Shown piece by piece: positions 4,052 through 34,518 of a stretch of 64,000 bases of DNA (its first letter is position 1; every line of letters begins with the position of its first letter). The notes below the pieces were generated by a model. It worked only from the letters and a program-made list of their open reading frames with translations, made no database searches and had not been told where the DNA came from. The stretch covers positions 766,305 to 830,304 of the forward strand of contig CAVYGQ010000001.1 of the NCBI GenBank assembly GCA_963768175.1, read 5' to 3'. This DNA comes from Candidatus Doudnabacteria bacterium. GTDB lineage: Bacteria; Patescibacteriota; Doudnabacteria; UBA920. The translations under genes and the position numbers were made by a program.

Positions 4052-4304
4052 GGTCAAGGATTTGTTTTAGAACCAAAGGTTTTGGATTAACTAAACTATA
4101 AAAAACCATTAAGCTCTGCTGATCGGCAAATACCATTTCCGCGGCTCTTAAAACCGCCAAATGTCGCGAGGTAGATTTAAACGAAAGTTTAATTTCTTTG
4201 GCAATGTCGCCAACCGAAGCCTTATTGACCTTGTCCAGATATTTTAAAATCTTAAGCCTTCTTGCGTTTGCCAAAGCTTTTAATTGTTTTTCTAATTCTT
4301 TCAT
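4044..4304 (-). CDS. ArsR/SmtB-family winged-HTH transcriptional regulator (86 aa)
   Basis: LANARRLKILKYL...SVGDIAKEIKLSFKSTSRHLAVL HTH signature; GGAGG Shine-Dalgarno sequence 6 nt upstream of the ATG. Confidence 0.7.
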   Translation of the reverse strand: MKELEKQLKALANARRLKILKYLDKVNKASVGDIAKEIKLSFKSTSRHLAVLRAAEMVFADQQSLMVFYSLVNPKPLVLKQILDQC

Positions 4305-4314
4305 AAATACCTCC

Positions 4315-4341
4315 GAGTGCTAATTCGCACGAATAAGCACT
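4315..4341. repeat. right arm of the 27-bp inverted repeat, lying between the promoter region and the RBS of the arsR-like gene
   Basis: Reverse complement of 4025..4051; contains an internal agtgct/agcact hairpin. Confidence 0.8.
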
Positions 4342-4353
4342 CGTCTCCATTGT

Positions 4354-7317
4354 TTAATAGCTCCACGCTAAATCGCCTTTATTGGTACTAACCTTTAACA
4401 AATCCAAACCGGTAATTGATTTTAAAATTACGCCGGTTTTGTCTATGCCGACAAGAGAAGTCTTTTTACCGTTATAAACCGCTAAAATGACATAGGTTTT
4501 CTTGGCGGCCACGTTCTGGGAAAGGAAGGTTAAATTATTGTTTTTATCATATGCCCAAACAAAAGCCAAAATGTTTTTGCTGATATCCTGTAATATTCCG
4601 CTATAACTTAAAGACTGGATGGTAGACTGCATGCTGATTTTGCGGTTCTTTTCCTTAAGCTTAATCTCCGTGTTATTCCCGGCTTGGTCGGTAAGCAAAA
4701 TGTCATTTACATTATCCAGCACGGTAACTTTGGATGTGGTGGAAATATTATCACTGCCGGTAAACTGGATGTCTTTAAGCGAAGGGTTAAATTGTATAAC
4801 CGCTTCCGGGGCGGTTTTGTCTATGGTAAAGTTGGTGGTTTGTGGCTGTTCGTTATTCCCGGCTTTGTCGGTGGAAAAGAAGCTGATTGTATGCAGGCCT
4901 TCGGAGGTAACGCTAACTGTTCCCATTCCTCCCCCTTCTAGGGGGAGGCTAGGTGGGGGTGTTAAAGTTTGCCAAACTCCTCCGTCTAAACTGTATTGTG
5001 TTTTTAGTATTCCCGATGTGGTGGAGGCATTATTGTCTACTATTGGATCTTGCGCAGCCAAAGCCACGCTAACATTGCTCCTGTAAAACCCCGGCTGTCC
5101 CATAGTACCAATAATAGTTGAAGTGGAAACGGGAGGGGTGAGATCTTGAGATTGGTCTGCGTTGATGGTACTATCAGGGGTTACCACAACAGGAGTACTG
5201 GTAGGCGTGGCCTGTAAAGTTAAAGTAGTCTGCCCATTATCCCCGCCCAAATTTACTTGGCCGGTTAAAGCGGGAGTTACCGGCAAGTTAGAAAAGACCT
5301 GGGTTTGGGTTGTGACATTCCCACTTATACTTTCGTCATCCAGAGTAAAGGTCCCTGCCGCCGTACCAGCTATATTAATATCATAATTTTGATTATTATC
5401 CGTTGGTAAAAACACATATTTTTCATCTCCCCAGACTTCATAATCCGCTCCGGGAATAGAATTCTCTATTGAACCGTCCGGCAGAAGCCCTGAATGATTG
5501 CCATCTTGGTCAACTACGTCAATTGCCAAAGGGCTATGAATTTTTAAACTTTCCCCTTTAATTTCACAAAGGTCTGGCTTATTGGCCACTTCACCTTGAG
5601 TTAATATTTTCCCGCTAGTATCCAAAGCGCCGCCCGTAAGAATGTTTACAATTTCCTGACGGGAACCGTCTGCGCTAAGCAGGTTTCCGTGGTTTATGCC
5701 CGGCGCGAAAAATGTTCTGGTCTCATCTACCGGCAAACTGTCCGCGCTGGCAAAAGGTACAGTCCCGTCTCCCGAAGTGACTTTTGGAAAATTAAATGTC
5801 GGGGCCGAATTTTCATTAATCCATTCTGTAAACTTACCCAACGTCCCTGATTTACAACCAACTATGTTATATAAATCCACACCAGCGTTTCTTAAATCGT
5901 AGTTATCAAAATCCGCGGTATGCAAATCAGTACTACTAGCCACGCCTTGATTGTTAGCATAACTAGCACCCACCAAGTTCTGCATAGTCTCGGTAAAATT
6001 TAAGTCTTTATCTAAAATAGGATTTGTTAGAGGATTATGAAGGTGAAAAAAACTTCCGGCTTGATTATAGTATTCTTGCGTCGGAGCCAAATCATAAATC
6101 ACCGGCATATTTTGGCCTATCTTTTTCATTTCTAAAGGATTAAGCTCAGGGACGCCAAAATCGTCCCCCACTACTAAAGCTTTTAAAGCCTGTGGCGCGC
6201 CCAAGTTTGGCACGCCCACAAGCACCGCTTTACCAATATGGTGGTCGGTCGGATTTTCCCTTACATATTTTTTTACCAAAAGTCCGCCTGTACTATGGGC
6301 AACAACATTAACCACACTACTCCCCGTAGTGCTAGCAATATATGCAATCTCTCCTTTTAATTGGTTAACCGTGTCTTCACTAACCCCAAACCGCCAATCG
6401 TAAGGAAAAGTAAAAAGATCCTTGCCTTCAGTGTAACCGATGTCGGGAGAAGTAAGTTGATTAATTAAGCCATCTGTATAATGAGAAATAAAACCTATCG
6501 CTCCCTTTTGTCTTATAACTGACCCTAAGGTAAGACTAGCATTAAGCGGCGTCAAATTTTGATTAAAGGCTAACGGATCCATAAAGCCATCTGAAATAAA
6601 ACTCATTTTTGGATTTGCCCATAATAAATTAGTTCCTTGATATATATCTGTTCCTAAAACCCCAGGGACAACTAAAATGGGAACTTTTTGATTGTCTGTA
6701 ACATAGTGCATTCTAAACCACATTGCATAATTGGGATAAATAAAACTCAGGTTAAATTGACCGGCGCCAAGCCATGGGACAGTATTACTGTCTGTTCCGG
6801 CGGCTTCCACATTTTTCATTCCTCCGAGAAAAAACAAGATAAATTTTTTCGTTAAGTCACAAACCGGGCCATTATTTGGATCTATATTAAATTGAAACGA
6901 AAACTCTTGAAAACTATCACTCAATTGATCTTGACTAACAGAATTAAGCGAGGTTAAGTTAGCCAAAAAGAAATCTTCGTCTTCGCCATGCTCGTTGCAT
7001 AAAACTGTCATCTGTACAGGAAAGTCTTGGCCACCAGGGAATTTTCGAAGTCTAACATCTATAGAAGATAGTTTGGCCGGTACTTGGGACAAAAGTTCCG
7101 GAGGATATTTATTATAATCAAAACTTAACATTGTTAGCCCATAACCTGGTTCTTGCACTTGGGCAACATTGCCATTATCATTAACAAACATATCTCCTGC
7201 ATAAAAAGCCGGAACAATGGTACCATCTTGCAGGCCCTGAAAATAAAAAACATCCGATGCCGAAACAAACGCCGGTATAAGTAATAATCCCGAAACAAGC
7301 ACAATGCGCTTGAACAT
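4354..7317 (-). CDS. secreted alpha/beta-hydrolase (lipase/esterase, PGAP1/LCAT-like) with C-terminal Ig-like beta-sandwich domains (987 aa)
   Basis: N-terminal signal peptide MFKRIVLVSGLLLIPAFVSA; GxSxG nucleophile elbow VVAHSTGGLL; Thr/Ser-rich C-terminal repeats; carries an in-frame GC-palindromic element (4928..4961). Confidence 0.6.
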   Translation of the reverse strand: MFKRIVLVSGLLLIPAFVSASDVFYFQGLQDGTIVPAFYAGDMFVNDNGNVAQVQEPGYGLTMLSFDYNKYPPELLSQVPAKLSSIDVRLRKFPGGQDFPVQMTVLCNEHGEDEDFFLANLTSLNSVSQDQLSDSFQEFSFQFNIDPNNGPVCDLTKKFILFFLGGMKNVEAAGTDSNTVPWLGAGQFNLSFIYPNYAMWFRMHYVTDNQKVPILVVPGVLGTDIYQGTNLLWANPKMSFISDGFMDPLAFNQNLTPLNASLTLGSVIRQKGAIGFISHYTDGLINQLTSPDIGYTEGKDLFTFPYDWRFGVSEDTVNQLKGEIAYIASTTGSSVVNVVAHSTGGLLVKKYVRENPTDHHIGKAVLVGVPNLGAPQALKALVVGDDFGVPELNPLEMKKIGQNMPVIYDLAPTQEYYNQAGSFFHLHNPLTNPILDKDLNFTETMQNLVGASYANNQGVASSTDLHTADFDNYDLRNAGVDLYNIVGCKSGTLGKFTEWINENSAPTFNFPKVTSGDGTVPFASADSLPVDETRTFFAPGINHGNLLSADGSRQEIVNILTGGALDTSGKILTQGEVANKPDLCEIKGESLKIHSPLAIDVVDQDGNHSGLLPDGSIENSIPGADYEVWGDEKYVFLPTDNNQNYDINIAGTAAGTFTLDDESISGNVTTQTQVFSNLPVTPALTGQVNLGGDNGQTTLTLQATPTSTPVVVTPDSTINADQSQDLTPPVSTSTIIGTMGQPGFYRSNVSVALAAQDPIVDNNASTTSGILKTQYSLDGGVWQTLTPPPSLPLEGGGMGTVSVTSEGLHTISFFSTDKAGNNEQPQTTNFTIDKTAPEAVIQFNPSLKDIQFTGSDNISTTSKVTVLDNVNDILLTDQAGNNTEIKLKEKNRKISMQSTIQSLSYSGILQDISKNILAFVWAYDKNNNLTFLSQNVAAKKTYVILAVYNGKKTSLVGIDKTGVILKSITGLDLLKVSTNKGDLAWSY
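4928..4961. repeat. C/G-rich palindromic element (half copy) inserted in-frame in the hydrolase gene; encodes ...TPPPSLPLEGGGMG...
   Basis: cctcccccttctagggggaggctaggtgggggtg; the tail ctaggtgggggtg is identical to the end of the 23448..23536 copy. Confidence 0.7.
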
Positions 7318-19321: not shown

Positions 19322-19669
19322 CTATGCCGTACCGCTTTGCTTAATATAATCGCTAATCCGCTGCTGGTCTTCCCTCGCTTGCTCACCTTTAAAATACAGT
19401 TCAATAAAGACTATTTCTTTCTTGTTGGGGTGATAGGCATAAATTATCCTTAGTGTATTTTTCTTCAAAAATCGGCAAAAAAATCGCGCTTTGGCAATTT
19501 TTAACTCGCTGTTTTGGAATAAAACAGCAAAATGCTTGTCAGTTCCAAGCGGCACTTCTTCCAAAACTTTCTTGAACACTTCCAAATCTTCGGGCAGGGA
19601 AAGGTATTTTTTGCCCAGCCGTTTGCAATTTTTGGTAAATTCAGGTAATTCATTAAAGTTCATCGTCAT
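19322..19669 (-). CDS. RelE/ParE-superfamily (HigB-like) toxin; start assumed at the internal ATG (MTMNFNEL), overlapping the upstream antitoxin stop
   Basis: C-terminal RIIYAYHPNKKEIVFIELYFKGE pattern typical of RelE/ParE; 17-nt overlap with the HTH gene. Confidence 0.5.
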   Translation of the reverse strand: MTMNFNELPEFTKNCKRLGKKYLSLPEDLEVFKKVLEEVPLGTDKHFAVLFQNSELKIAKARFFCRFLKKNTLRIIYAYHPNKKEIVFIELYFKGEQAREDQQRISDYIKQSGTA

Positions 19670-20429
19670 AATTGCGGACCGAATGTTCCTGATCACGGTA
19701 AAAAACACTTTCGTAATCTATTGCTTCTCCGGGTTTATGAACCATCCAAGGTATATCTGAATGGGAATATTTGCTTAATTCCGAAGCGGATTTATCGGAA
19801 AGCCGGTTTAACACCTCGTCAATATGTGCCAATTCCCGCGCGGACAATACTGTTAAATCCGCCTCTTCTCTCGGTAAGTATTTTTTTTGCTCATACTGAA
19901 AATAGCTGCTTTTAACTTTTTCCAGTTCATTTTGCGCTTCCATTTCTTTAACCAAACTCGAAAATTCCCTGGGAGTGGGTCCAAAATGATTGCGGATATA
20001 AGTCGCGCCGGTTAATTGTTCCTCAAACTTTTCATAAAAATCAAAATCAACAAAATATAACAACTTATAAAGTGCAGTTTCACCTATGTTGGGTTTGGCG
20101 CCGACTTTCCCCAAAATATATAACAAAACACTTTTAAATTTGTCAACGTTCAACTTGGGGACATTAATTCTAACTTCATTTTCAATTTCCGATTTTTTTG
20201 CCCTATTATCTAATTTTACCTTATGCTCGATAGGCGAAATTTGCGCCAAAAAATCGTCTAAAGGCAAACCAAAAAGCTCCGCGAGTTTTTGAGCTTCAGA
20301 TACTGTTAGCTCCCTTTCCCCTTTTTCTATTTGCATATAAGTGGGGCGAGAGACATTAATTTTTTGGGACACAAAATTCTGGGAAAATTTCGCATTTTCC
20401 CTCAATTTTTTGAGATATAGTCCAGTCAT
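19653..20429 (-). CDS. XRE-family HTH antitoxin-like protein with a C-terminal roughly 170-aa domain (possibly DUF4065/Panacea-type)
   Basis: N-terminal LYLKKLRENAKFSQNFVSQKINVSRPTYMQIEKGERELTVSEAQKLAELFGL HTH_XRE; first gene of a two-gene operon behind a consensus promoter. Confidence 0.6.
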   Translation of the reverse strand: MTGLYLKKLRENAKFSQNFVSQKINVSRPTYMQIEKGERELTVSEAQKLAELFGLPLDDFLAQISPIEHKVKLDNRAKKSEIENEVRINVPKLNVDKFKSVLLYILGKVGAKPNIGETALYKLLYFVDFDFYEKFEEQLTGATYIRNHFGPTPREFSSLVKEMEAQNELEKVKSSYFQYEQKKYLPREEADLTVLSARELAHIDEVLNRLSDKSASELSKYSHSDIPWMVHKPGEAIDYESVFYRDQEHSVRNYDDEL

Positions 20430-20460
20430 AGGGCTTAATCCTTTATTATTACTTTTCTTA

Positions 20461-20488
20461 ATTATATCAAAGTTAAACTATTTGTCAA
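20461..20488 (-). promoter_or_regulatory. consensus sigma70 promoter TTGACA-16-TATAAT for the toxin-antitoxin operon
   Basis: Reverse complement reads ttgacaaatagtttaactttgatataat; about 25 nt upstream of the HTH gene start. Confidence 0.55.
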
Positions 20489-20603
20489 TAGCTATAGTAA
20501 ATAACCTTTACAAATCATCAATTCCCTGCTAAACTATAAGGTAAGGTGGAGGCCAATAACCGAAACCAAAACTAATAATTAACTTGCTATGAAAGGAGCA
20601 AAT

Positions 20604-20765
20604 ATGCCAAAGCAACATCGTCACGTTGTCGATTTTGTGGCCCACAAGAAAGTTAAGGAGCCTGTAGAAGTCACTTTTGTGACCAATAAGGGTAAAGTAG
20701 TGGATTTTCCGGCCCACAAAAAAGTCAAAGAACCTGTGGAAGTCAGGTTCAAGGCCAAAGATTAA
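20604..20765 (+). CDS. 53-aa protein with two tandem 17-aa repeats (VDFVAHKKVKEPVEVTF / VDFPAHKKVKEPVEVRF)
   Basis: aaaggagc RBS 4 nt upstream of the ATG; strong terminator immediately downstream; not in the track (under 60 aa). Confidence 0.4.
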   Translation: MPKQHRHVVDFVAHKKVKEPVEVTFVTNKGKVVDFPAHKKVKEPVEVRFKAKD

Positions 20766-20796
20766 ATTAACTTCAAAAAAATGAAATCAAAATTTT

Positions 20797-20836
20797 AAAA
20801 GGCCGCGGCCAAAATAGTCGCGGCCTTTTATTTTGT
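20797..20836. terminator. intrinsic terminator (11-bp perfect stem aaaaggccgcg/cgcggcctttt); also serves the convergent DUF262-HNH gene
   Basis: Perfect GC-rich stem with a U-tract. Confidence 0.7.
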
Positions 20837-20843
20837 ATATTTT

Positions 20844-21935
20844 TTATTTTCCGGATTTAGTTCTATTATCATCTACGCACAGCATCTGGCAATTTTCCGC
20901 CGTAGTCGCCCCTCCCTTGCTCCACGGTTTGATATGGTCGGCTTCCATTTCGGAAATATCATATTCTTTTTTACAAAACGGGCAAATGCCGTTTTGCCGC
21001 TCATACGCCTCACGCTTCATTTTGTCGGTAAAAGCACGGATTGAAAGGTATTTTTCTTGTCTCGTTAAAATATATGGGTAAATACCGGATTTTTTAGTTA
21101 CATCTTCGTCCTGCATTAACTCTTTAATTTCGGCTTCCAGTTTGCCGACATTCTGTTTCTTGTCTTTAAATTCGTTATACAGTTCGCCCCACTCTACACT
21201 ATTCATTTCCCGGCGATAATTCGTAAAAGTTTTTCGCACCCAATCAATTACTTCTTGAAAATACTCCCATAACTCATCGGCATTTTTATTATGCTGATGC
21301 TTAGCCATGTAATCTTCTATTTTGCCGTTGTTAATCCATGAAAGCGCGGTTTCCAAATATTCCTGCCGAATTGGCGAACCGCTTACCAACTGCCCGCCGT
21401 CGTTGGCCAGCAGATACGCCGCGCAATGCGTTTTGCTGAACTTTAGTTTTGCGTCACTAAGCCACGGCCCTGTGTAAACCGCGTTACGGATTTCCTGGTC
21501 GGTAAGTTTTTCGCCGGCGATGTTAATAATCCTGAACCAATCCAGCCGCTCTTTATCCGTGCCCTCGCAAAAATAAATCATCAGCTCGTAATCCAAAATC
21601 CGGTTTTGTTCTTCGTCGGTTAGATTATGAAAATACATCTCGTTAAGTGAAAAATCACCGGCAACATATTGCCCGATGCTAATGGTGCGCTGTTGGCCGT
21701 CCAAAACTTCAAAATTGCCGGAATCATTTTTCATCCAGTACATTACATTAAGCGGGAAGCCATTTTTGATGGTTTTAATAACGGCATTGCGCTGCTGCTC
21801 CTTATAAACAAACTCCCGCTGATATTTTGGCCGGATATCCAGCTTGCCGCTAAAAGCTACTACGCCCTCCTCGGCGCTGTCTTTATAACCAGCAATTACT
21901 TTTCGTATAGTGATGCGATGTAAATCTATTTTCAT
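20844..21935 (-). CDS. DUF262 (ParB/Srx-like, DGQQR motif) plus C-terminal HNH nuclease; GmrSD-like candidate restriction component
   Basis: LDGQQRTISI motif; HNH signature CPFCKKEY...ADHIKPWSKGG...NCQMLCVDDNRTK. Confidence 0.7.
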   Translation of the reverse strand: MKIDLHRITIRKVIAGYKDSAEEGVVAFSGKLDIRPKYQREFVYKEQQRNAVIKTIKNGFPLNVMYWMKNDSGNFEVLDGQQRTISIGQYVAGDFSLNEMYFHNLTDEEQNRILDYELMIYFCEGTDKERLDWFRIINIAGEKLTDQEIRNAVYTGPWLSDAKLKFSKTHCAAYLLANDGGQLVSGSPIRQEYLETALSWINNGKIEDYMAKHQHNKNADELWEYFQEVIDWVRKTFTNYRREMNSVEWGELYNEFKDKKQNVGKLEAEIKELMQDEDVTKKSGIYPYILTRQEKYLSIRAFTDKMKREAYERQNGICPFCKKEYDISEMEADHIKPWSKGGATTAENCQMLCVDDNRTKSGK

Positions 21936-21936
21936 A

Positions 21937-23004
21937 CTAATTGATTACTTTCTTATTTTTTATGATAACTCGCGCGTAAGGAACGTCAACGGCTCCATTT
22001 GTAATCATGTACAAATCACCATCAACAGCTCCTCTTTTTTGAATTTCTTTCCTGTATTTTTTGTGGTTTTCTTTATAGGGCTTAACCCCAATTTCTATTC
22101 CCGAATTGGATATTCCCAAACCGATAATCTCAAATTGCTCCGGATTATATTTATCAAGAAAGGTAATAGGCACCCCTATAGCACCATTGTAGTCTGCCGG
22201 GATTTCAGAAGTTTTATTAACGTTAATAGCATCAAAATTTTCATACTTGGGATATTCTGTGGGAGTATATTTTTTATAAAGTAAAAAATTTTCATGACGC
22301 TCTTCGTAATCAAGGTTTGTAAACCAACGCACGCCTTTAACGCGAATATACTTGTGCCCATCCGCATCAACACGATAACTTGCCGCGTTCAGAGGATAAT
22401 CATCTGGTACCTGAAATTCACGATCGCCGCTATGGATACTCGCTCCAAGCCACATATTATTTTCTTTTATTAACTTAAAACACTCTTTATAAGTAATTGC
22501 ATTTACATTTCCAATTATCAAAAATTTCTTATTGTACTCCACCAACTGCGCAATATATTCTCTTAACAAAGAAAACGGCGGGTTGGTTACCACGATGTCG
22601 GCTTCTTTCAGCAGTTCAATACACTCCTGGCTTCGGAAGTCACCGGTGCCTATCATTTTGGTCATAAAATCATGCGGGTCGGGAACACGGCTGCCCTTTT
22701 TGCCGCCGGTGTATTCCAGTTTATATGGCGGTTCGTGGGTAAAAAGGTTGGCTTCTTTGTAATGAGTGGCAATGAGTTTCTTAAGTCCCAGTTCCGCAAA
22801 ATTTATGCTAAAATATTTCACAAAATTGCTTTCTTTCGGGTCGTCGCAATTACAAAACACCACTTTACCGCGAAACTGGTCTTTGTAGTGCTTAAGCTCG
22901 TTTTCAATATCGGCAAGCTGGGTATAAAATTCGTCTTTTTTTGCCCTGCTAGCCGTATGTAGATTTTTGTTTAAAAATTTCTTTTCCATGATTATTTTTA
23001 CCAA
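21937..23004 (-). CDS. putative N6-adenine DNA methyltransferase (gamma-like motif order: DEFYTQ motif X, then NPPF motif IV)
   Basis: DIVVTNPPFSLL (NPPF); N-terminal DEFYTQL resembling the (G/D)xFYTP AdoMet-region motif; lies upstream of the DUF262-HNH gene. Confidence 0.6.
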   Translation of the reverse strand: MVKIIMEKKFLNKNLHTASRAKKDEFYTQLADIENELKHYKDQFRGKVVFCNCDDPKESNFVKYFSINFAELGLKKLIATHYKEANLFTHEPPYKLEYTGGKKGSRVPDPHDFMTKMIGTGDFRSQECIELLKEADIVVTNPPFSLLREYIAQLVEYNKKFLIIGNVNAITYKECFKLIKENNMWLGASIHSGDREFQVPDDYPLNAASYRVDADGHKYIRVKGVRWFTNLDYEERHENFLLYKKYTPTEYPKYENFDAINVNKTSEIPADYNGAIGVPITFLDKYNPEQFEIIGLGISNSGIEIGVKPYKENHKKYRKEIQKRGAVDGDLYMITNGAVDVPYARVIIKNKKVIN

Positions 23005-29272: not shown

Positions 29273-29863
29273 TTATTTCTTCCCGAGAAGTTGCAATGCC
29301 TGCTTTAACTGTTCCCCTTGCGGTTTTGCGCTATCTATTTTATTTACCACTTCCCTGACTTCACGCTGATTATATCCAAGGGCCAGCAGCGCGTCAAAAA
29401 CTTCACTTCCCGCTCCGGCCGTTCCGCCGCCAGGCCCGACCTTGGCTTTTAACTCCACGATAATTTTTTCCGCGGTTTTAAGGCCCACGCCGGAAATTCT
29501 GGTAAACACCCCCGCGTCCTGGTTGGCTATGGCCTGCCTGACCGCCTCAACTTTGGCGGCCGACAGTATTGCCAAGGCCACTTTCGGCCCCACGCCGGAA
29601 ACGGTAATAAGCAGTTCAAAAAACTGCAGGGTAGCAAAATCCGGCAAACCGAACAGGCTCTGCCCGTCATCACTGACTTTATGATAAGTAAACAAGGCCA
29701 CGGTATCGCCAATCTTGCCTTCAAGAGTCTCGGGCGTCACAAAAACCTTATACCCTACGCCGTTATTTTCTCCGCCAGAGGCGGATGCACCTCCGGTGTA
29801 CAAAATAATATAAGTCAGCCCTTTTTCTAAAATTGTGCCTTTTAAATAAGATATCATACCCAT
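29273..29863 (-). CDS. ruvA: Holliday junction branch-migration complex subunit RuvA
   Basis: N-terminal MISYLKGTILEK...; HhH motifs (GVGPKVALAIL / ISGVGLKTAEKI); 196 aa. Confidence 0.85.
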   Translation of the reverse strand: MGMISYLKGTILEKGLTYIILYTGGASASGGENNGVGYKVFVTPETLEGKIGDTVALFTYHKVSDDGQSLFGLPDFATLQFFELLITVSGVGPKVALAILSAAKVEAVRQAIANQDAGVFTRISGVGLKTAEKIIVELKAKVGPGGGTAGAGSEVFDALLALGYNQREVREVVNKIDSAKPQGEQLKQALQLLGKK

Positions 29864-29914
29864 ATTTTATCACATTTTTGACATTTTTGGATAAAAGAAT
29901 TAAATTTAATAAAC

Positions 29915-30441
29915 TCAGGCGGCGCCTGGTGGAAAAACCCAGCCCAGGCGCTTAGCCCACCCCCTCAAACGTGAGCGAGGGGCCAATAAGGGGGGCCCAG
30001 GCCCCCCAATTGGAAAGCAAATTTGCAAAGGAACCCGGCGGCCAAGCGGCGGTTGCCCGCGGGGCACCCGCATCACAATCGGAGCAGGCCCTTGTGGTCA
30101 CGCTTCAATGGATTGCGGTAATACCTACCGCTACCGCCGGGGACAAATTTAAAGAGGAATTGGGCACACAGCCTCGCGCAGAGGTTTTGCGCCCTTGAGA
30201 CACGCCGAATACCTATCAGACCCAGCTGGTATGCAGACGACGCGCCTCCCCAAGAGGGTCACAGCACAACTACTTTTTTTCTGCATTACCGTGGCAAATG
30301 CTCCAGCGACAGAAAGCAGAGATAAGTACTTATGCCGGGAAGAGACTTTTCCCATGACCCCCAGGATATATTTTAGGCCTATTATTGGCCGCCGGATGCT
30401 ACCCCCTCCTTACCCTACCCCAGCATCCGGTTCTTTTTTTT
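29915..30441 (+). ncRNA. candidate structured ncRNA of about 500 nt, about 60% GC against a roughly 43% background, with multiple stable hairpins and an intrinsic terminator; class unresolved (rnpB, ffs and ssrA to be tested)
   Basis: GC-rich hairpins (ccccctcaaacgtgagcgagggg, gggggcccaggcccccc, ggcgcctgg...ccaggcgc); GGAAAG/AGGAACCCGG and GCGGUAA motifs; terminal ccggatgct-loop-agcatccgg plus T8; the track ORFs here are spurious. Confidence 0.35.
30392..30441 (+). terminator. intrinsic terminator closing the GC-rich RNA region
   Basis: 9-bp stem ccggatgct/agcatccgg followed by ttctttttttt. Confidence 0.6.
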
Positions 30442-30566
30442 GTTCGCGTACGGTGTTATGATATAAGTCTGAACAAGCAATAGTGTTCGAGCTTGTCGAG
30501 AACCTATTATTTGTACTAAACTAAAAAATATCTTCTCCACGGGGGTCGAAGAATATTTTTTATTAT

Positions 30567-32660
30567 ATGAACAGATTTGTCTTAAAATCCAAGTTTCGGC
30601 CTGCCGGCGACCAGCCAAAAGCCATAGAAGGCCTGCTTAAATCGCTTAAAGCCAAACGCCGCTACCAAACACTTTTAGGCGTTACCGGGAGCGGCAAGAC
30701 TTTTACCATGGCCAATATTATAGAGAAGATCCAGAAACCCACCTTAATTATTAGCCACAATAAAACTTTGGCCGCCCAACTTGCCGCGGAATTTGAGGAA
30801 TTTTTCCCCGAAAATGCCGTACACTATTTTGTTTCCTATTATGACTACTACCAGCCCGAAGCCTATATCCCCCGCTCCGACACTTACATAGAAAAAGACA
30901 CCCAAATAAACGAAGAAATAGACCGCCTTAGGAATGCGGCCACGCAGTCGCTGCTGTCGCGCAAAGACGTCTTAATTGTGGCCAGTGTCTCCTGCATTTA
31001 CGGCCTGGGCAACCCGGCCAACTATTTGGAGCTGTCCTTAAACGTCAAAAAGGGCCAAAGCTTAAAGCGCGACAAGTTGCTAAGGCGGCTAACGGATTTG
31101 CAATATCACAGAAATGATATTGATTTACAAAGAGCCACGTACCGCGTGCAGGGCGACGTGGTGGAAATTATTTTGTCTTCCGAAGACACGGTTATCCGCA
31201 TGGATTTCTTTGGCGATGTTTTGGAAAACATTGAACGGCGGGATGTGGTCACCGGCCACAAAATTGAAAATCTTGATGAATTTACCATTTTCCCGGCCAA
31301 GCATTTTGTCACGCCGGAAGAAAAGCTAAAAGAAGCCGCGGAAAATATCCGCCTGGAGCTTACCGGCAGGGTAGCGGAGCTTAAAGCCCAGGGAAAAATT
31401 TTGGAAGCCGCCAGGCTGGAGCAAAGGACAAATTTTGATTTGGAAATGCTGACCAACACGGGCTTCGTGGCCGGCATAGAAAATTATTCCCGAGTGCTGG
31501 AAGGCCGCGAGCCGGGCAGCCCGCCATCCACTCTGATTGATTATTTTCCCGACGATTTTTTGCTGTTTTTGGACGAATCGCACCAAAGTGTGCCGCAAAT
31601 CGGCGCTATGTATGAAGGCGACAAATCCCGCAAAACCACTTTGGTAGACTACGGCTTCCGCCTGCCCAGCGCCTTGGACAACCGCCCGCTGAAATTTGAC
31701 GAATTTGAAAAAAAAATCAATCAGGTAATTTTTGTGTCCGCCACGCCGGCGGAGTTTGAAATTGAAAGAAGCCTAACGCAAAAAGACACGAAATTTATAA
31801 CTAAGTCCAGACGCACCGAAACCGAGCAAAGCATAATAGACGCCAGGCCGAAATTAAAACAAATGGACCCGCCGTCCATTGTGGAGCAAATTATCCGCCC
31901 CACCGGGCTGATTGATCCCACCATTGAAATCAAGCCCATAAAAAACCAAGTGGATGACTTAATAGAGCGCATAAAACAGCGCGCTAACAAGCACCACCGT
32001 GTGTTGGTAGCCACGCTGACTAAGCGCATGGCCGAAGAGTTGGCCGAATATTTAAAAGAAGAAGGCATAAAAGTGCAGTATCTGCACTCGGACGTGGATA
32101 CTTTTGAACGTTTGGAAATTTTGCGCGATTTGCGTTTGGGGGTTTACGATGTTTTGGTAGGCATCAACCTTTTGCGCGAAGGCCTGGACTTGCCCGAAGT
32201 CAGCCTGGTGGCAATACTGGATGCCGACAAAGAAGGCTTTTTGCGCAGTGAGACATTTTTTATGCAAATGATGGGCCGGGCCGCCCGCCACATGGAAGGA
32301 CACGTGGTAATGTATGCCGACAGGATTACAGGCAGCATGAAACGGGCCATAGACGAAACCACCCGCCGTCGCGCCCTGCAGGAATCCTATAACAAAAAAC
32401 ACGGGATTACGCCCAAGTCCATCCAAAAAGCCATTGCCGATACCCGTTTGGCCGGCAGTAAGAAAGAAATTGAAGACGAAGAGGAACGCAAAATTGACCC
32501 CGCCAAAATGACTAGAGAAGAAATTAAGTTTTACGTTTCCGAACTGCAGGAACAAATGAACCTCGCCGCCCAGAACTTGGAATTCGAGTTGGCCGCCCGC
32601 CTCCGCGACCGCATTGCTGAAATAAAAAAGCTGAGCAAATTGAGAGGCAAAAAAATATAG
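30567..32660 (+). CDS. uvrB: excinuclease ABC subunit B
   Basis: Walker [16 protein letters not shown]; [10 protein letters not shown] beta-hairpin region; helicase motifs; C-terminal UVR domain. Confidence 0.95.
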
Positions 32661-33161: not shown

Positions 33162-33389
33162 CTATATTTTTTCCTTAATCACTTCCATCGCCTGGCAAAA
33201 CTCCGTTAAATGATCGGGAAAAACCGTAATGTGGTTTCTCACCGGGATTCCTTTGTCTAAACGTGTTTCCGAAACTAGCAAATACTTTCCGCCCTTTTCC
33301 CCCCTTGCCTGCTTCACATCAAAGAAGTAAGTCTTACCGCCAGCTTTCATGCTTTGAGTATATATAGGTTTTTGAAATTCTTCTGACAT
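33162..33389 (-). CDS. PUR-alpha-like ssDNA/RNA-binding protein (DUF3276 family)
   Basis: GGKTYFFDVKQARGEKGGKYLLVSETR matches the DUF3276 YFFDVK...YL.I.E core. Confidence 0.55.
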   Translation of the reverse strand: MSEEFQKPIYTQSMKAGGKTYFFDVKQARGEKGGKYLLVSETRLDKGIPVRNHITVFPDHLTEFCQAMEVIKEKI

Positions 33390-33462
33390 ATTTTTTATTT
33401 CTAACTTAATTGTGCGACCTTTGATTAATAACTCCCGCAGCTGTTCGGGAATGATTAGAAAA

Positions 33463-34518
33463 TTATTTCCTATTGATCAAGTTTACTATTAGCTTTACCA
33501 TGACATTTTTCTGTACCGATTTGCTTTCGGCTATCAATAAAGCCAGGGCTACTAAAGCGGTATCGTTGACTTTGCGTTCGCCCTTTTTGTTGTTGAGACA
33601 ATTATTTTCTATCAAGAACAGCAAAAACAGCAAACAGCCAATGCGCTTGTTGCCGTCCACAAACGGATGGTCCTTAATGGCAAAATATAAAAGGTGCGCA
33701 GCCTTTTCTTCCAAGCTCTGATACAACTCTTTGCCGGCGTAAGTTTGGTAAATGCTCCCCAAAACGGCTTCCAGCTTGCCCCCTACTTCCTGGCCGAACA
33801 GGGAGCTGACTTCTTTTTTGACGGCAAGGCGCTGTTTGAACCGCGCGATGGTTTTTTGGATTTCCCCGTGGTCCAGCGGCCGCGCGGTTTTTTTGCTGAC
33901 ATCGGTTATCCCTAATTTACCTTCGTCGTATTCATGAAGCACCGTCCACGTGTTGGCGTAGTCTACAATAATGTTCAAAAATTCCTTTTCATACCCTTCC
34001 GCGCGCCGCGCTTCTATCACGTTTTGGAACAACTTTACCGTCTGCTGGAGTTCCTTAAGCTGGCTGTTATGTTCCTGCTTTAACTGGTCCAGCCGGTTTT
34101 TATTGACCGCGTAACCCTGGAGCAAATAATCGCGCAACCTTTGCGTTGCCCAAATGCGGAATTGCGTGCCGCGTTTGGAATTAACCCGATATCCAACCGA
34201 AATAATCATATCTAAATTATAATAAGTTGTTGGCTTATCTAAGCCAATTCCAGTAAAACTGGAATTGGCTTGTTTAAGAGAAGTTTCGGCCTGATTAAGT
34301 TCATTTTCTCTATAAATATTATTGATGTGCAAAGAAATAGTTCTGAAGTCTTTCTTAAACAATTCTGACATTTGAGCTTGTGTAAGCCAAACAGTTTGTC
34401 CTTCCATTCTTACCCTTAATTCCGGCCCTTCCGGGGCTTTATAAATAATAATTTCACCTTTTCTTGTTTCTTCTGACATAAAACTCCTTTTGTTCAAGCC
34501 AATATGTACTTTCTGCAT
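33463..34518 (-). CDS. Fic/Doc-family protein (RhuM-like N-terminal domain plus Fic domain) with the variant motif HPFVDGNKRIG
   Basis: Fic motif HPFx(D/E)GN(G/K)R at DHPFVDGNKRIGCLL. Confidence 0.7.
   Translation of the reverse strand: MQKVHIGLNKRSFMSEETRKGEIIIYKAPEGPELRVRMEGQTVWLTQAQMSELFKKDFRTISLHINNIYRENELNQAETSLKQANSSFTGIGLDKPTTYYNLDMIISVGYRVNSKRGTQFRIWATQRLRDYLLQGYAVNKNRLDQLKQEHNSQLKELQQTVKLFQNVIEARRAEGYEKEFLNIIVDYANTWTVLHEYDEGKLGITDVSKKTARPLDHGEIQKTIARFKQRLAVKKEVSSLFGQEVGGKLEAVLGSIYQTYAGKELYQSLEEKAAHLLYFAIKDHPFVDGNKRIGCLLFLLFLIENNCLNNKKGERKVNDTALVALALLIAESKSVQKNVMVKLIVNLINRK

Follow-up and report, generated by a model that had tools for sequence, protein, structure and literature searches.

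Few bacterial RNAs are large and have a complex fold, and those that are understood (RNase P RNA, transfer-messenger RNA [tmRNA], group I and group II introns, and OLE RNA) have sophisticated biochemical roles. Only very few RNAs are known from bacteria of the Candidate Phyla Radiation (CPR), whose genomes are tiny. Searches of long GC-rich intergenic regions (GC-IGR searches) have uncovered orphan large structured noncoding RNAs (ncRNAs), for example the smtA "Soda Lake" RNA of >350 nucleotides (nt) (PMC11109978, PMC8632094). For ncRNAs of the Doudnabacteria or large ncRNAs of CPR bacteria, we found no literature. Here we analyzed a 64,000-nt stretch of a Candidatus Doudnabacteria genome, called the window below (assembly GCA_963768175.1, contig CAVYGQ010000001.1, positions 766,305 to 830,304 of the forward strand), and describe an element at window positions 29915-30441, located between ruvA (29273-29863, minus strand) and uvrB (30567-32660, plus strand). 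With a probability of roughly 0.6, we consider it a stand-alone gene for a large (~530 nt), highly structured ncRNA of an undescribed family which, as far as the data reach, is confined to a subgroup of the Doudnabacteria. A cis-acting uvrB leader, a relic of a tRNA operon, a diverged housekeeping RNA, and an mRNA for a small protein were weighed as alternatives and are weaker explanations than a stand-alone ncRNA.

Composition, fold, and boundaries of the element

The GC content of the element is 56.7%, compared to 44.9% for the window, and reaches 61.5% in its 5′ part (29915-30200, ~290 nt). The value of about 60% given in an initial annotation of this DNA, which had been made from the sequence by eye, is thus correct for the 5′ half and slightly high for the whole segment. 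Among sliding windows of 527 nt, only 0.03% reach the GC content of the element, and the maximum of the 64 kb lies at position 29910. The predicted minimum free energy (MFE) of the plus strand is −207.5 kcal/mol, versus −176.8 ± 7.5 kcal/mol for dinucleotide shuffles (z score of −4.1), and none of 100 shuffles folded as well. The GC maximum and the z score bear out the initial description of a GC-rich segment packed with hairpins. The fold of the minus strand has a z score of −3.8. We assigned the RNA to the plus strand because of the direction of its promoter and terminator and because the covarying helices described below contain G-U pairs, which would be A-C mismatches on the opposite strand.

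The predicted promoter upstream of the element (Table 1) places the transcription start near position 29913. Of 26 Doudnabacteria ruvA-uvrB spacers, 24 have a promoter of the form TTGACA-N16-18-TAnnnT at the equivalent position and with the same orientation. At the other end, GCCGGAUGCU (30391-30400) pairs with AGCAUCCGGU (30422-30431) to form the stem of the intrinsic terminator, in agreement with the clean plus-strand terminator that the initial annotation had recognized. Our terminator scan overlooked this structure because the loop limit of the tool was 8 nt. Nearly all related loci have a hairpin with six to eight T residues behind it at the end of the spacer that faces uvrB.

Homologues and covariation of the core

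The RuvA and UvrB proteins of the window assign it to Candidatus Doudnabacteria (Patescibacteria), and an identical UvrB is encoded on a 949-kb contig. Homologues of the element, co-oriented with it and likewise located between ruvA and uvrB, were found in seven other Doudnabacteria genomes (L085, L001, L081, L084, L090, L004, and L092; L numbers denote loci or contigs from relatives and from scans, L001 being the same as L087 and L081 the same as L082 and L083). The closest of them, L085, is 63% identical over 570 nt with many indels, at a RuvA identity of 88%. BLASTN and nhmmer searches with the element against 80 RuvA-anchored loci revealed no similarity; the homology is patchy and emerged from reading L001, which shares the short motifs GAGGAATTGGGCA, TTTTGCGCCC, and CCCCAA.. 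with the window, and then from covariance models. L085, L081, L084, L090, and L092 were reached via the contigs of closer RuvA and UvrB proteins. Of further contigs, L088 and L094 contain too little DNA upstream, and L091 comprises only 230 nt upstream of uvrB.

The first covariance model was built from the ~150-nt core of L085 alone with a hand-derived structure. It recovered L001, L081, L084, the window, L090, and L004 with E values of 1e-5 to 1e-13, the window scoring 30.8 bits (E value of 3.7e-6). A second-round model, which includes the window itself, gave 62.2 bits and an E value of 1.5e-16 for the window and E values of 1.6e-22 or lower for L085, L001, L081, L084, L090, and L004, and it added L092 (E values of 3e-9 to 7e-10). 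The window copy carries all features proposed for the family, namely, the purine motif, junction 1 (reduced by one of its two hairpins), the Pd/Pe domain, the CCCAA linker, junction 2, the terminator, and the location on the uvrB strand. Beyond the family, the core model found nothing in 94 loci, and it detected no second copy in the 64-kb window. A search of ten more spacers with filters switched off gave nothing convincing, with weak matches anchored at motif A in L005 and L008. Metagenomes scanned with a terminator/uvrB promoter pattern yielded a single contig, identical to L001 and thus adding no sequence, and nothing similar to the element was found in phage and plasmid collections. A scan of viral contigs with a core pattern returned L095, in which the match lies inside a phage replication protein open reading frame (ORF) and is not recognized by the covariance model; we rejected it as a chance match.

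In the core alignment of the eight sequences, which was fitted to the structure of the model and therefore inflates pairing, 92.2% of the cells are paired, compared to 73.9% in shuffles, and 23 of the 34 pairs are changed on both sides, compared to 12.0 in shuffles. None of 500 shuffles reached any of the covariation measures, and when the pairing partners were slid by 1 to 3 columns, only 30 to 43% of the cells remained paired. Helix Pa is paired to 100%, and both-sided changes were observed for five of seven pairs in Pb, four of seven in Pc, five of seven in Pd, and all eight in Pe. The pair types of Pd include GGGGC/GCCCC (L081 and L084), GGGAU/AUCCC (L001), and GAGG/CCUC (L085), a variety that is hard to explain otherwise, despite the model-fitted alignment. 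When six members were folded separately by MFE, all of them adopted the Pf(Pg,Ph) architecture in junction 2. Helix Pf itself reads UGGCC/GGCCA in L001 and GGGUC/GACCC in the others, which corresponds to two compensated pairs.

ORFs do exist in the element, among them 29971-30198 and 30195-30461. However, none of five ORFs has a Pfam match, the substitutions relative to L085 show no bias by codon position (30/24/33 and 30/31/27), and 9 of 12 indels would shift the reading frame. A six-frame comparison of the related spacers revealed no conserved peptide or ORF segment. Dismissal of these ORFs as artifacts in the initial annotation was therefore justified. Its central proposal, an unannotated, independently terminated structured ncRNA on the plus strand, is likewise supported, by the promoter and terminator, which eight genomes retain, by the covariation of the core, and by the lack of a coding signal.

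The RNA does not belong to a described family as far as covariance models can tell. In the whole window, Rfam 15 gave no match at the gathering score, and with an E-value limit of 10, the region 29700-30700 gave only chance-level matches to eukaryotic families and to one unrelated small RNA. Lack of an Rfam match is one half of the combination, the other being lack of transcription, that the initial annotation had named as refuting its proposal. The models for RNase P RNA, signal recognition particle (SRP) RNA, tmRNA, and 6S RNA, which the initial annotation had proposed to check, produced no match at an E value of ≤10 in ~1-kb stretches of the window, L092, and L004 and none at ≤1 in L081, L084, L085, and L086, which were searched whole. 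Nor was there a covariance-model match to 6S, OLE, ROOL, GOLLD, HEARO, raiA, or other Rfam 15 families in the window or in the relatives searched; the remaining matches (11.5 to 25 bits) were at chance level and to unrelated families, apart from genuine tRNAs in L086 and L018. ARAGORN predicted no tRNA or tmRNA gene in the window and no tmRNA in 36 related loci.

Domain architecture and the neighboring uvrB gene

The RNA has a modular architecture consisting of a variable 5′ domain, an exposed purine segment, two junction domains with covarying helices, a 3′ hairpin, and the terminator (Table 1).

Table 1. Features of the ruvA-uvrB element and of the adjoining uvrB leader, with positions in the window
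Feature	Position	Strand	Basis or remark
Predicted RNA, ~529 nt, 56.7% GC	29913..30441	+	ends placed by promoter and terminator
Predicted sigma-70-like promoter: −35 TTGACA (29878-29883), 17-nt spacer, −10 TAAATT (29901-29906)	29878..29906	+	10/12 matches; directed into the element
Variable 5′ domain: H1 (29918-29957), H2 (29960-29982), H3 (29990-30007), H4 (30017-30026), four-way junction	29913..30145	+	MFE
Four-way junction of the 5′ domain, closed by CCCGGCGG/CCGCCGGG	30034-30141	+	MFE
Purine-rich, Shine-Dalgarno-like motif AAAGAGGAAUU	30151..30161	+	unpaired in the model structure; kept in 7/8 members
Core junction 1: helix Pa GGGC (30162-30165)/GCCC (30191-30194) around hairpin CCUC (30172-30175)/GAGG (30181-30184)	30162..30194	+	covariance-model alignments
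Core domain 2: helix Pd GAG..CGC/GCG..CUC around hairpin Pe (about 30209-30232)	30197..30248	+	covariation
Conserved linker CCCCAAGA (motif D)	30248..30255	+	
Three-way junction 2: closing helix Pf GGGUCA (30256-30261)/UGACCC (30355-30360)	30256..30360	+	fold common to six members
Long hairpin Pg, inside Pf	about 30264-30335	+	
Short hairpin Ph, GGGAAGA/UUUUCCC, inside Pf	30337-30353	+	
Motif E CCCAGGAUAUA with conserved GGA	30360-30370	+	CA(A)GGA(C/U) in window, L085, L081, L084, L001, L004
Hairpin GGCC-UAUUAUU-GGCC after motif E	30376-30390	+	
Intrinsic terminator: 10-bp stem, 21-nt G-free loop, then UC and U8 (30434-30441)	30391..30441	+	free energy −15.7 kcal/mol
Predicted extended −10-like uvrB promoter GGTGTTATGATATAAGT, outside the RNA	30452..30468	+	conserved in L001, L009, L081, L084, L092; looser in L086
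uvrB leader palindrome GAAC-N10-GTTC, outside the RNA	30471-30488	+	
uvrB leader palindrome GTTCGAGCTTGTCGAGAAC, overlapping the preceding one	30485-30503	+	

The 5′ domain of the window is shared with L085 only. Its hairpins H3 and H4 show changes on both sides relative to L085 (pairwise alignment, RNAalifold). In L001, L081, and L084, a different four-way junction takes its place, and L090, L004, and L092 carry yet other 5′ sequences. All of the motifs which had led the initial annotation to suggest RNase P or SRP RNA lie in this exchangeable domain. They are present in the sequence as quoted (GGAAAG at 30012-30017, AGGAACCCGG at 30029-30038, GCGGTAA at 30115-30121, and CAGGCC at 29998-30003 and 30085-30090), and the counterparts in L085 read AGAAAG, AGGAACCTGG, and GCGGTAA. 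L001 and L004 contain none of the exact strings, and by reading we saw no evident counterpart in the 5′ domains of L001, L081, L084, L090, L004, and L092.

Helix P4 of RNase P RNA is formed by two conserved strands (CR-I GGAAAGUCC.. and CR-V ACAGAA..CGGCUUA) that are separated by most of the molecule, and the hairpin of SRP domain IV is characterized by a GNAR loop and conserved internal loops. In the element, only 12 nt separate GGAAAG from AGGAACCCGG; the two motifs border a 10-nt hairpin, lack complementarity, and do not represent distant P4 strands. CAGGCC is placed in the H3 loop, and GGAAAGCA belongs to a separate hairpin behind it, in contrast to the arrangement in SRP domain IV; the L085 counterpart of H3 reads GGGGGAGGAUAACCUCCCCC and lacks CAGGCC. 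There is no P1-type pairing of the RNA ends, the terminator hairpin at the 3′ end having no 5′ partner, and of the tmRNA features, a split tRNA-like domain, a CCA end, and a tag reading frame are all missing. We examined the RNase P anatomy directly because the RNase P RNAs of 10 of 35 circular CPR genomes were reported to fall below the Rfam thresholds, with helices missing or extended (Lui et al. 2021, PMC8172020). This report is also an argument for a strongly diverged housekeeping RNA missed by Rfam, RNase P RNA in the first place and otherwise tmRNA, SRP RNA, or 6S RNA. The size of 0.4 to 0.65 kb, the strong predicted promoter, the tRNA neighbors in relatives, and the sequences GAGGAA..GGGC and, in L085, ACAGGAACCUGGC, which recall CR-I and CR-V, point in the same direction. 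Nevertheless, we regard a housekeeping RNA as very unlikely: the models failed even at an E value of ≤10 in the ~1-kb stretches searched and ARAGORN was negative, the look-alike motifs are restricted to the window/L085 5′ domain in an RNA that lacks P1 and a distant P4, the element is absent or replaced at the ruvA-uvrB locus of close relatives, and its sequence evolves much faster than those of housekeeping RNAs. Identity with RNase P RNA, SRP RNA, tmRNA, or 6S RNA is not supported.

The purine motif following the 5′ domain reads AGGAGGA in L001, L081, L084, and L004, and similar purine motifs were seen in less closely related spacers (L005, L027, L008, and the 3′ part of L092). Reading of the sequences disclosed no consistent complementary stretch that could be its intramolecular partner. 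Translation from this motif, that is, an mRNA or dual-function RNA that encodes at least one small protein, has some appeal, as four members have a perfect AGGAGGA preceded by A/U-rich sequence, most members have UUG GGC after the motif, and L002 and L089 use the equivalent position as ribosome-binding site of a real ORF with a helix-turn-helix (HTH) domain. However, the UUG begins just 0 to 2 nt past the motif and is missing in L081, and the short frames behind it vary both in sequence and in length (12, 22, 9, 26, and 11 codons). As the region past the motif is a covarying junction and the larger ORFs have neither codon-position bias nor intact frames nor Pfam matches, we consider a coding function highly improbable.

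Junction 1 of the core starts directly behind the purine motif. In the relatives, this junction contains two hairpins, Pb and Pc, which a deletion has fused into one in the window copy. The segment 30263-30284 (AGCACAACUACUUUUUUUCUGC) in junction 2 is identical in L085. The CCCAA of motif D is complementary to the UUGGG of 30160-30164. Because this complementarity is conserved but lacks covariation, we treat an alternative pairing or a pseudoknot between the two segments as only a possibility.

An alternative pairing of this kind would be in keeping with a cis-acting leader of uvrB that starts at 29913, senses a signal, and sets uvrB expression, with the terminator acting either as an attenuator that responds to conditions or as protection from promoter occlusion. 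UUGGG could then pair alternatively with the GCCC of Pa or with CCCAA. The element is co-oriented with uvrB and linked to it in all eight members, its terminator ends 126 nt before the uvrB start codon, and the U-tract abuts the putative uvrB promoter. This promoter is at the same time an argument against a leader: because a conserved extended −10-like sequence follows the terminator, uvrB probably has a promoter of its own past the RNA. Furthermore, relatives with ruvA-uvrB spacers of 4 to 14 nt have no leader at all, the size of 0.4 to 0.65 kb is far above that of known riboswitches and attenuators, no antiterminator alternative to the 10-bp stem was seen, and some relatives have ORFs or tRNAs in the unit instead, with no change to uvrB. 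Taken together, a leader function appears unlikely. The palindromes in the uvrB leader may represent a LexA-type operator; a palindrome resembling them is present in L027. On the other side of the element, ruvA looks leaderless or nearly so, with the −10-like sequence GATAAAAT a few bases before its start codon.

Turnover of the unit in relatives and comparison with known RNAs

The divergent arrangement of ruvA and uvrB is conserved among the relatives, and in most of them the spacer comprises 500 to 1000 nt with a GC content at or above the mean of the locus. In 24 of 26 Doudnabacteria spacers, a TTGACA-N17-TAnnnT promoter on the ruvA side is combined with a T-run on the uvrB side. Because of this common frame, the transcription unit must be old, and we infer that the unit from promoter to terminator is ancestral to the group and that the evolution of its transcribed part is very fast. 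In a few genomes the spacer is nearly absent (some with 4 to 14 nt between ruvA and uvrB).

The content of the frame varies considerably. In L002 (about 4435-4820) and L089 (2435-2785), an ORF of 116 to 128 amino acids with IS630-like HTH domains (HTH_28/29/32) takes the place of the RNA body; it lies between the shared promoter and a terminator and has the ribosome-binding site AGGAGGAA at the position of the purine motif. We considered that the element might be a degraded copy of this HTH gene and rejected the idea, as tblastn revealed no similarity. L016 contains an ATP-grasp ORF in place of the RNA. In other relatives, tRNA or tRNA-like genes lie inside the unit on the RNA strand (L005 at 4770-4839, L027 at 4851-4930 and about 4740-4870, L022 at 4365-4606, L086 at 1250-1324, and L018 at 4786-4929), followed in all five by other structured sequence. 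The tRNA of L005 is of the Ala type (G3-U70, A73, and CCA) with an anticodon loop of just 4 nt; of the tRNAs of L027, one has an enlarged anticodon loop and another an insertion in the D-loop. Different GC-rich, ORF-free RNAs of 450 to 650 nt, which the core model does not recognize, occupy the same frame in L009 (4242-4842) and L086 (1330-1780), and in L092 (1760-2100) the core is joined to unrelated flanking domains. These divergent spacer RNAs may be fast-diverged orthologues or independent replacements. At the uvrB end of the spacer, a second, truncated copy of the first ~15 uvrB codons and then a GC-rich palindromic insert precede the real uvrB start in L003, L004 (about 4170-4330), L012, L019, L021, L031, and L081 (about 690-960); L081 also contains an element resembling a miniature inverted-repeat transposable element with TAGGACTTACGCAC as terminal repeats. 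The 5′ end of uvrB thus seems to have been a recurrent site of insertion or recombination.

Such turnover could be taken to mean that the element is a transcribed but functionless relic of a tRNA operon or of mobile DNA which persists between an active promoter and a terminator. The tRNAs, odd tRNAs, and the Ala-like tRNA with its 4-nt anticodon loop in the relatives, the replacement of the content by an IS630-like HTH ORF, the hairpin deleted in the window copy, and the fast divergence from L085 relative to that of RuvA are in line with this explanation. Yet neutral decay would not keep helices, and 23 of 34 core pairs are compensated with 92% of the cells paired; junction 2 is kept in six genomes. 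The element is much richer in GC than the genome on average, while other spacers of the lineage are AT-rich, and the window element has no tRNA signal and no similarity to the HTH ORF, phages, or plasmids. A relic is therefore quite unlikely in our view.

The observations fit better with a stand-alone ncRNA. If, as it seems, uvrB is transcribed from a promoter of its own, the RNA would form a distinct and probably abundant transcript with a function in trans. Its few invariant single-stranded segments, set in a conserved scaffold, point to binding of a partner: the folded RNA would most likely present single-stranded AAAGAGGAAUU, CCCCAAGA, and CAGGA either to a protein or to the anti-Shine-Dalgarno end of 16S rRNA and would thus bind or sequester its partner instead of serving as a cis regulator or message. 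A more far-reaching idea is that the unit encodes an unrecognized class of large RNA, ancestral to the Doudnabacteria, which descended from or works with a tRNA-like module and docks on the anti-Shine-Dalgarno sequence of 16S rRNA, either as a ribosome-associated RNA for translation control or rescue or as a new ribonucleoprotein or ribozyme; the other spacer RNAs would then be fast-evolving orthologues. We put this forward as a long shot.

Several points weigh against a stand-alone ncRNA gene. The RNA is missing at the locus in the close relatives L002, L089, L016, L013, L003, L007, and L017, the last four of which have spacers of 14 to 260 nt; because of these absences, it must be dispensable or replaceable. 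The covariation is based on eight distinct sequences of a single lineage, in the model-fitted alignment mentioned above, and the window copy lacks one of the junction 1 hairpins. The promoter, the start site, and the action in trans are inferred. The genes of the window make little use of Shine-Dalgarno sequences and mostly have A/U-rich upstream regions, and for this reason a ribosome-docking role of the purine motif is speculative. Finally, we identified no partner protein. A 75-amino-acid PurA-like (DUF3276) protein, which belongs to a family of single-stranded nucleic acid-binding proteins, is encoded nearby; we rejected it as a candidate because its gene also lies beside uvrB in L013, which has no RNA, and does not co-occur with the RNA. 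Further genes in the surroundings (19653-23004 and 33162-34518) lie near the housekeeping cluster, are of the defense or toxin type, and encode an HTH plus SocA/Panacea antitoxin-like protein, a GmrSD-HNH nuclease, an EcoRI-like adenine methylase, and a RhuM/Fic protein.

A gene of ~0.5 kb with a strong predicted promoter that is held at one locus across species in tiny CPR genomes suggests a function worth its cost. That a frame of promoter, terminator, and junction core is kept, with the periphery or even the whole content exchanged, bears on the birth and death of RNAs. Automatic annotation fills the region with spurious ORFs, and the family provides a covariance-model seed for searches of CPR genomes.

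Among known systems, those close to the element include the orphan RNAs from GC-IGR searches and also OLE, ROOL, GOLLD, and raiA RNAs, with which it shares the GC-rich intergenic site, a covarying multijunction fold, a narrow range, and the lack of a known function. It differs from them in having no model match, a CPR host, a fixed position between ruvA and uvrB, and an exchangeable 5′ domain. ROOL and GOLLD RNAs are reportedly linked to tRNA genes, and tRNA linkage was also seen in the Doudnabacteria relatives.

With bacterial RNase P RNA (RF00010), the element has in common a similar size, a high GC content, a strong predicted promoter, and short motifs like CR-I and CR-V. In contrast to the RNase P RNAs (RF00010 and RF00011), it lacks a model match, P1, and a long-range P4, its look-alike domain is absent from six of eight homologues, and it is not universal among close relatives at the ruvA-uvrB locus. 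In some relatives, tRNA or tRNA-like genes stand at the start of the unit or elsewhere in it, and both types of 5′ domain form a four-way junction, which is reminiscent of tmRNA and tRNA-like RNAs; unlike tmRNA, the element has no ARAGORN or Rfam match, split tRNA-like domain, CCA end, or tag frame. Like CsrB/RsmZ and 6S RNA, it would be a stand-alone, probably abundant RNA with conserved exposed GGA purine motifs. A CsrB-like sponge was nevertheless rejected, as the 529 nt contain about 10 GGA triplets, close to chance frequency by manual count and estimate, with not many in hairpin loops, and in contrast to 6S RNA, the fold is not rod-like.

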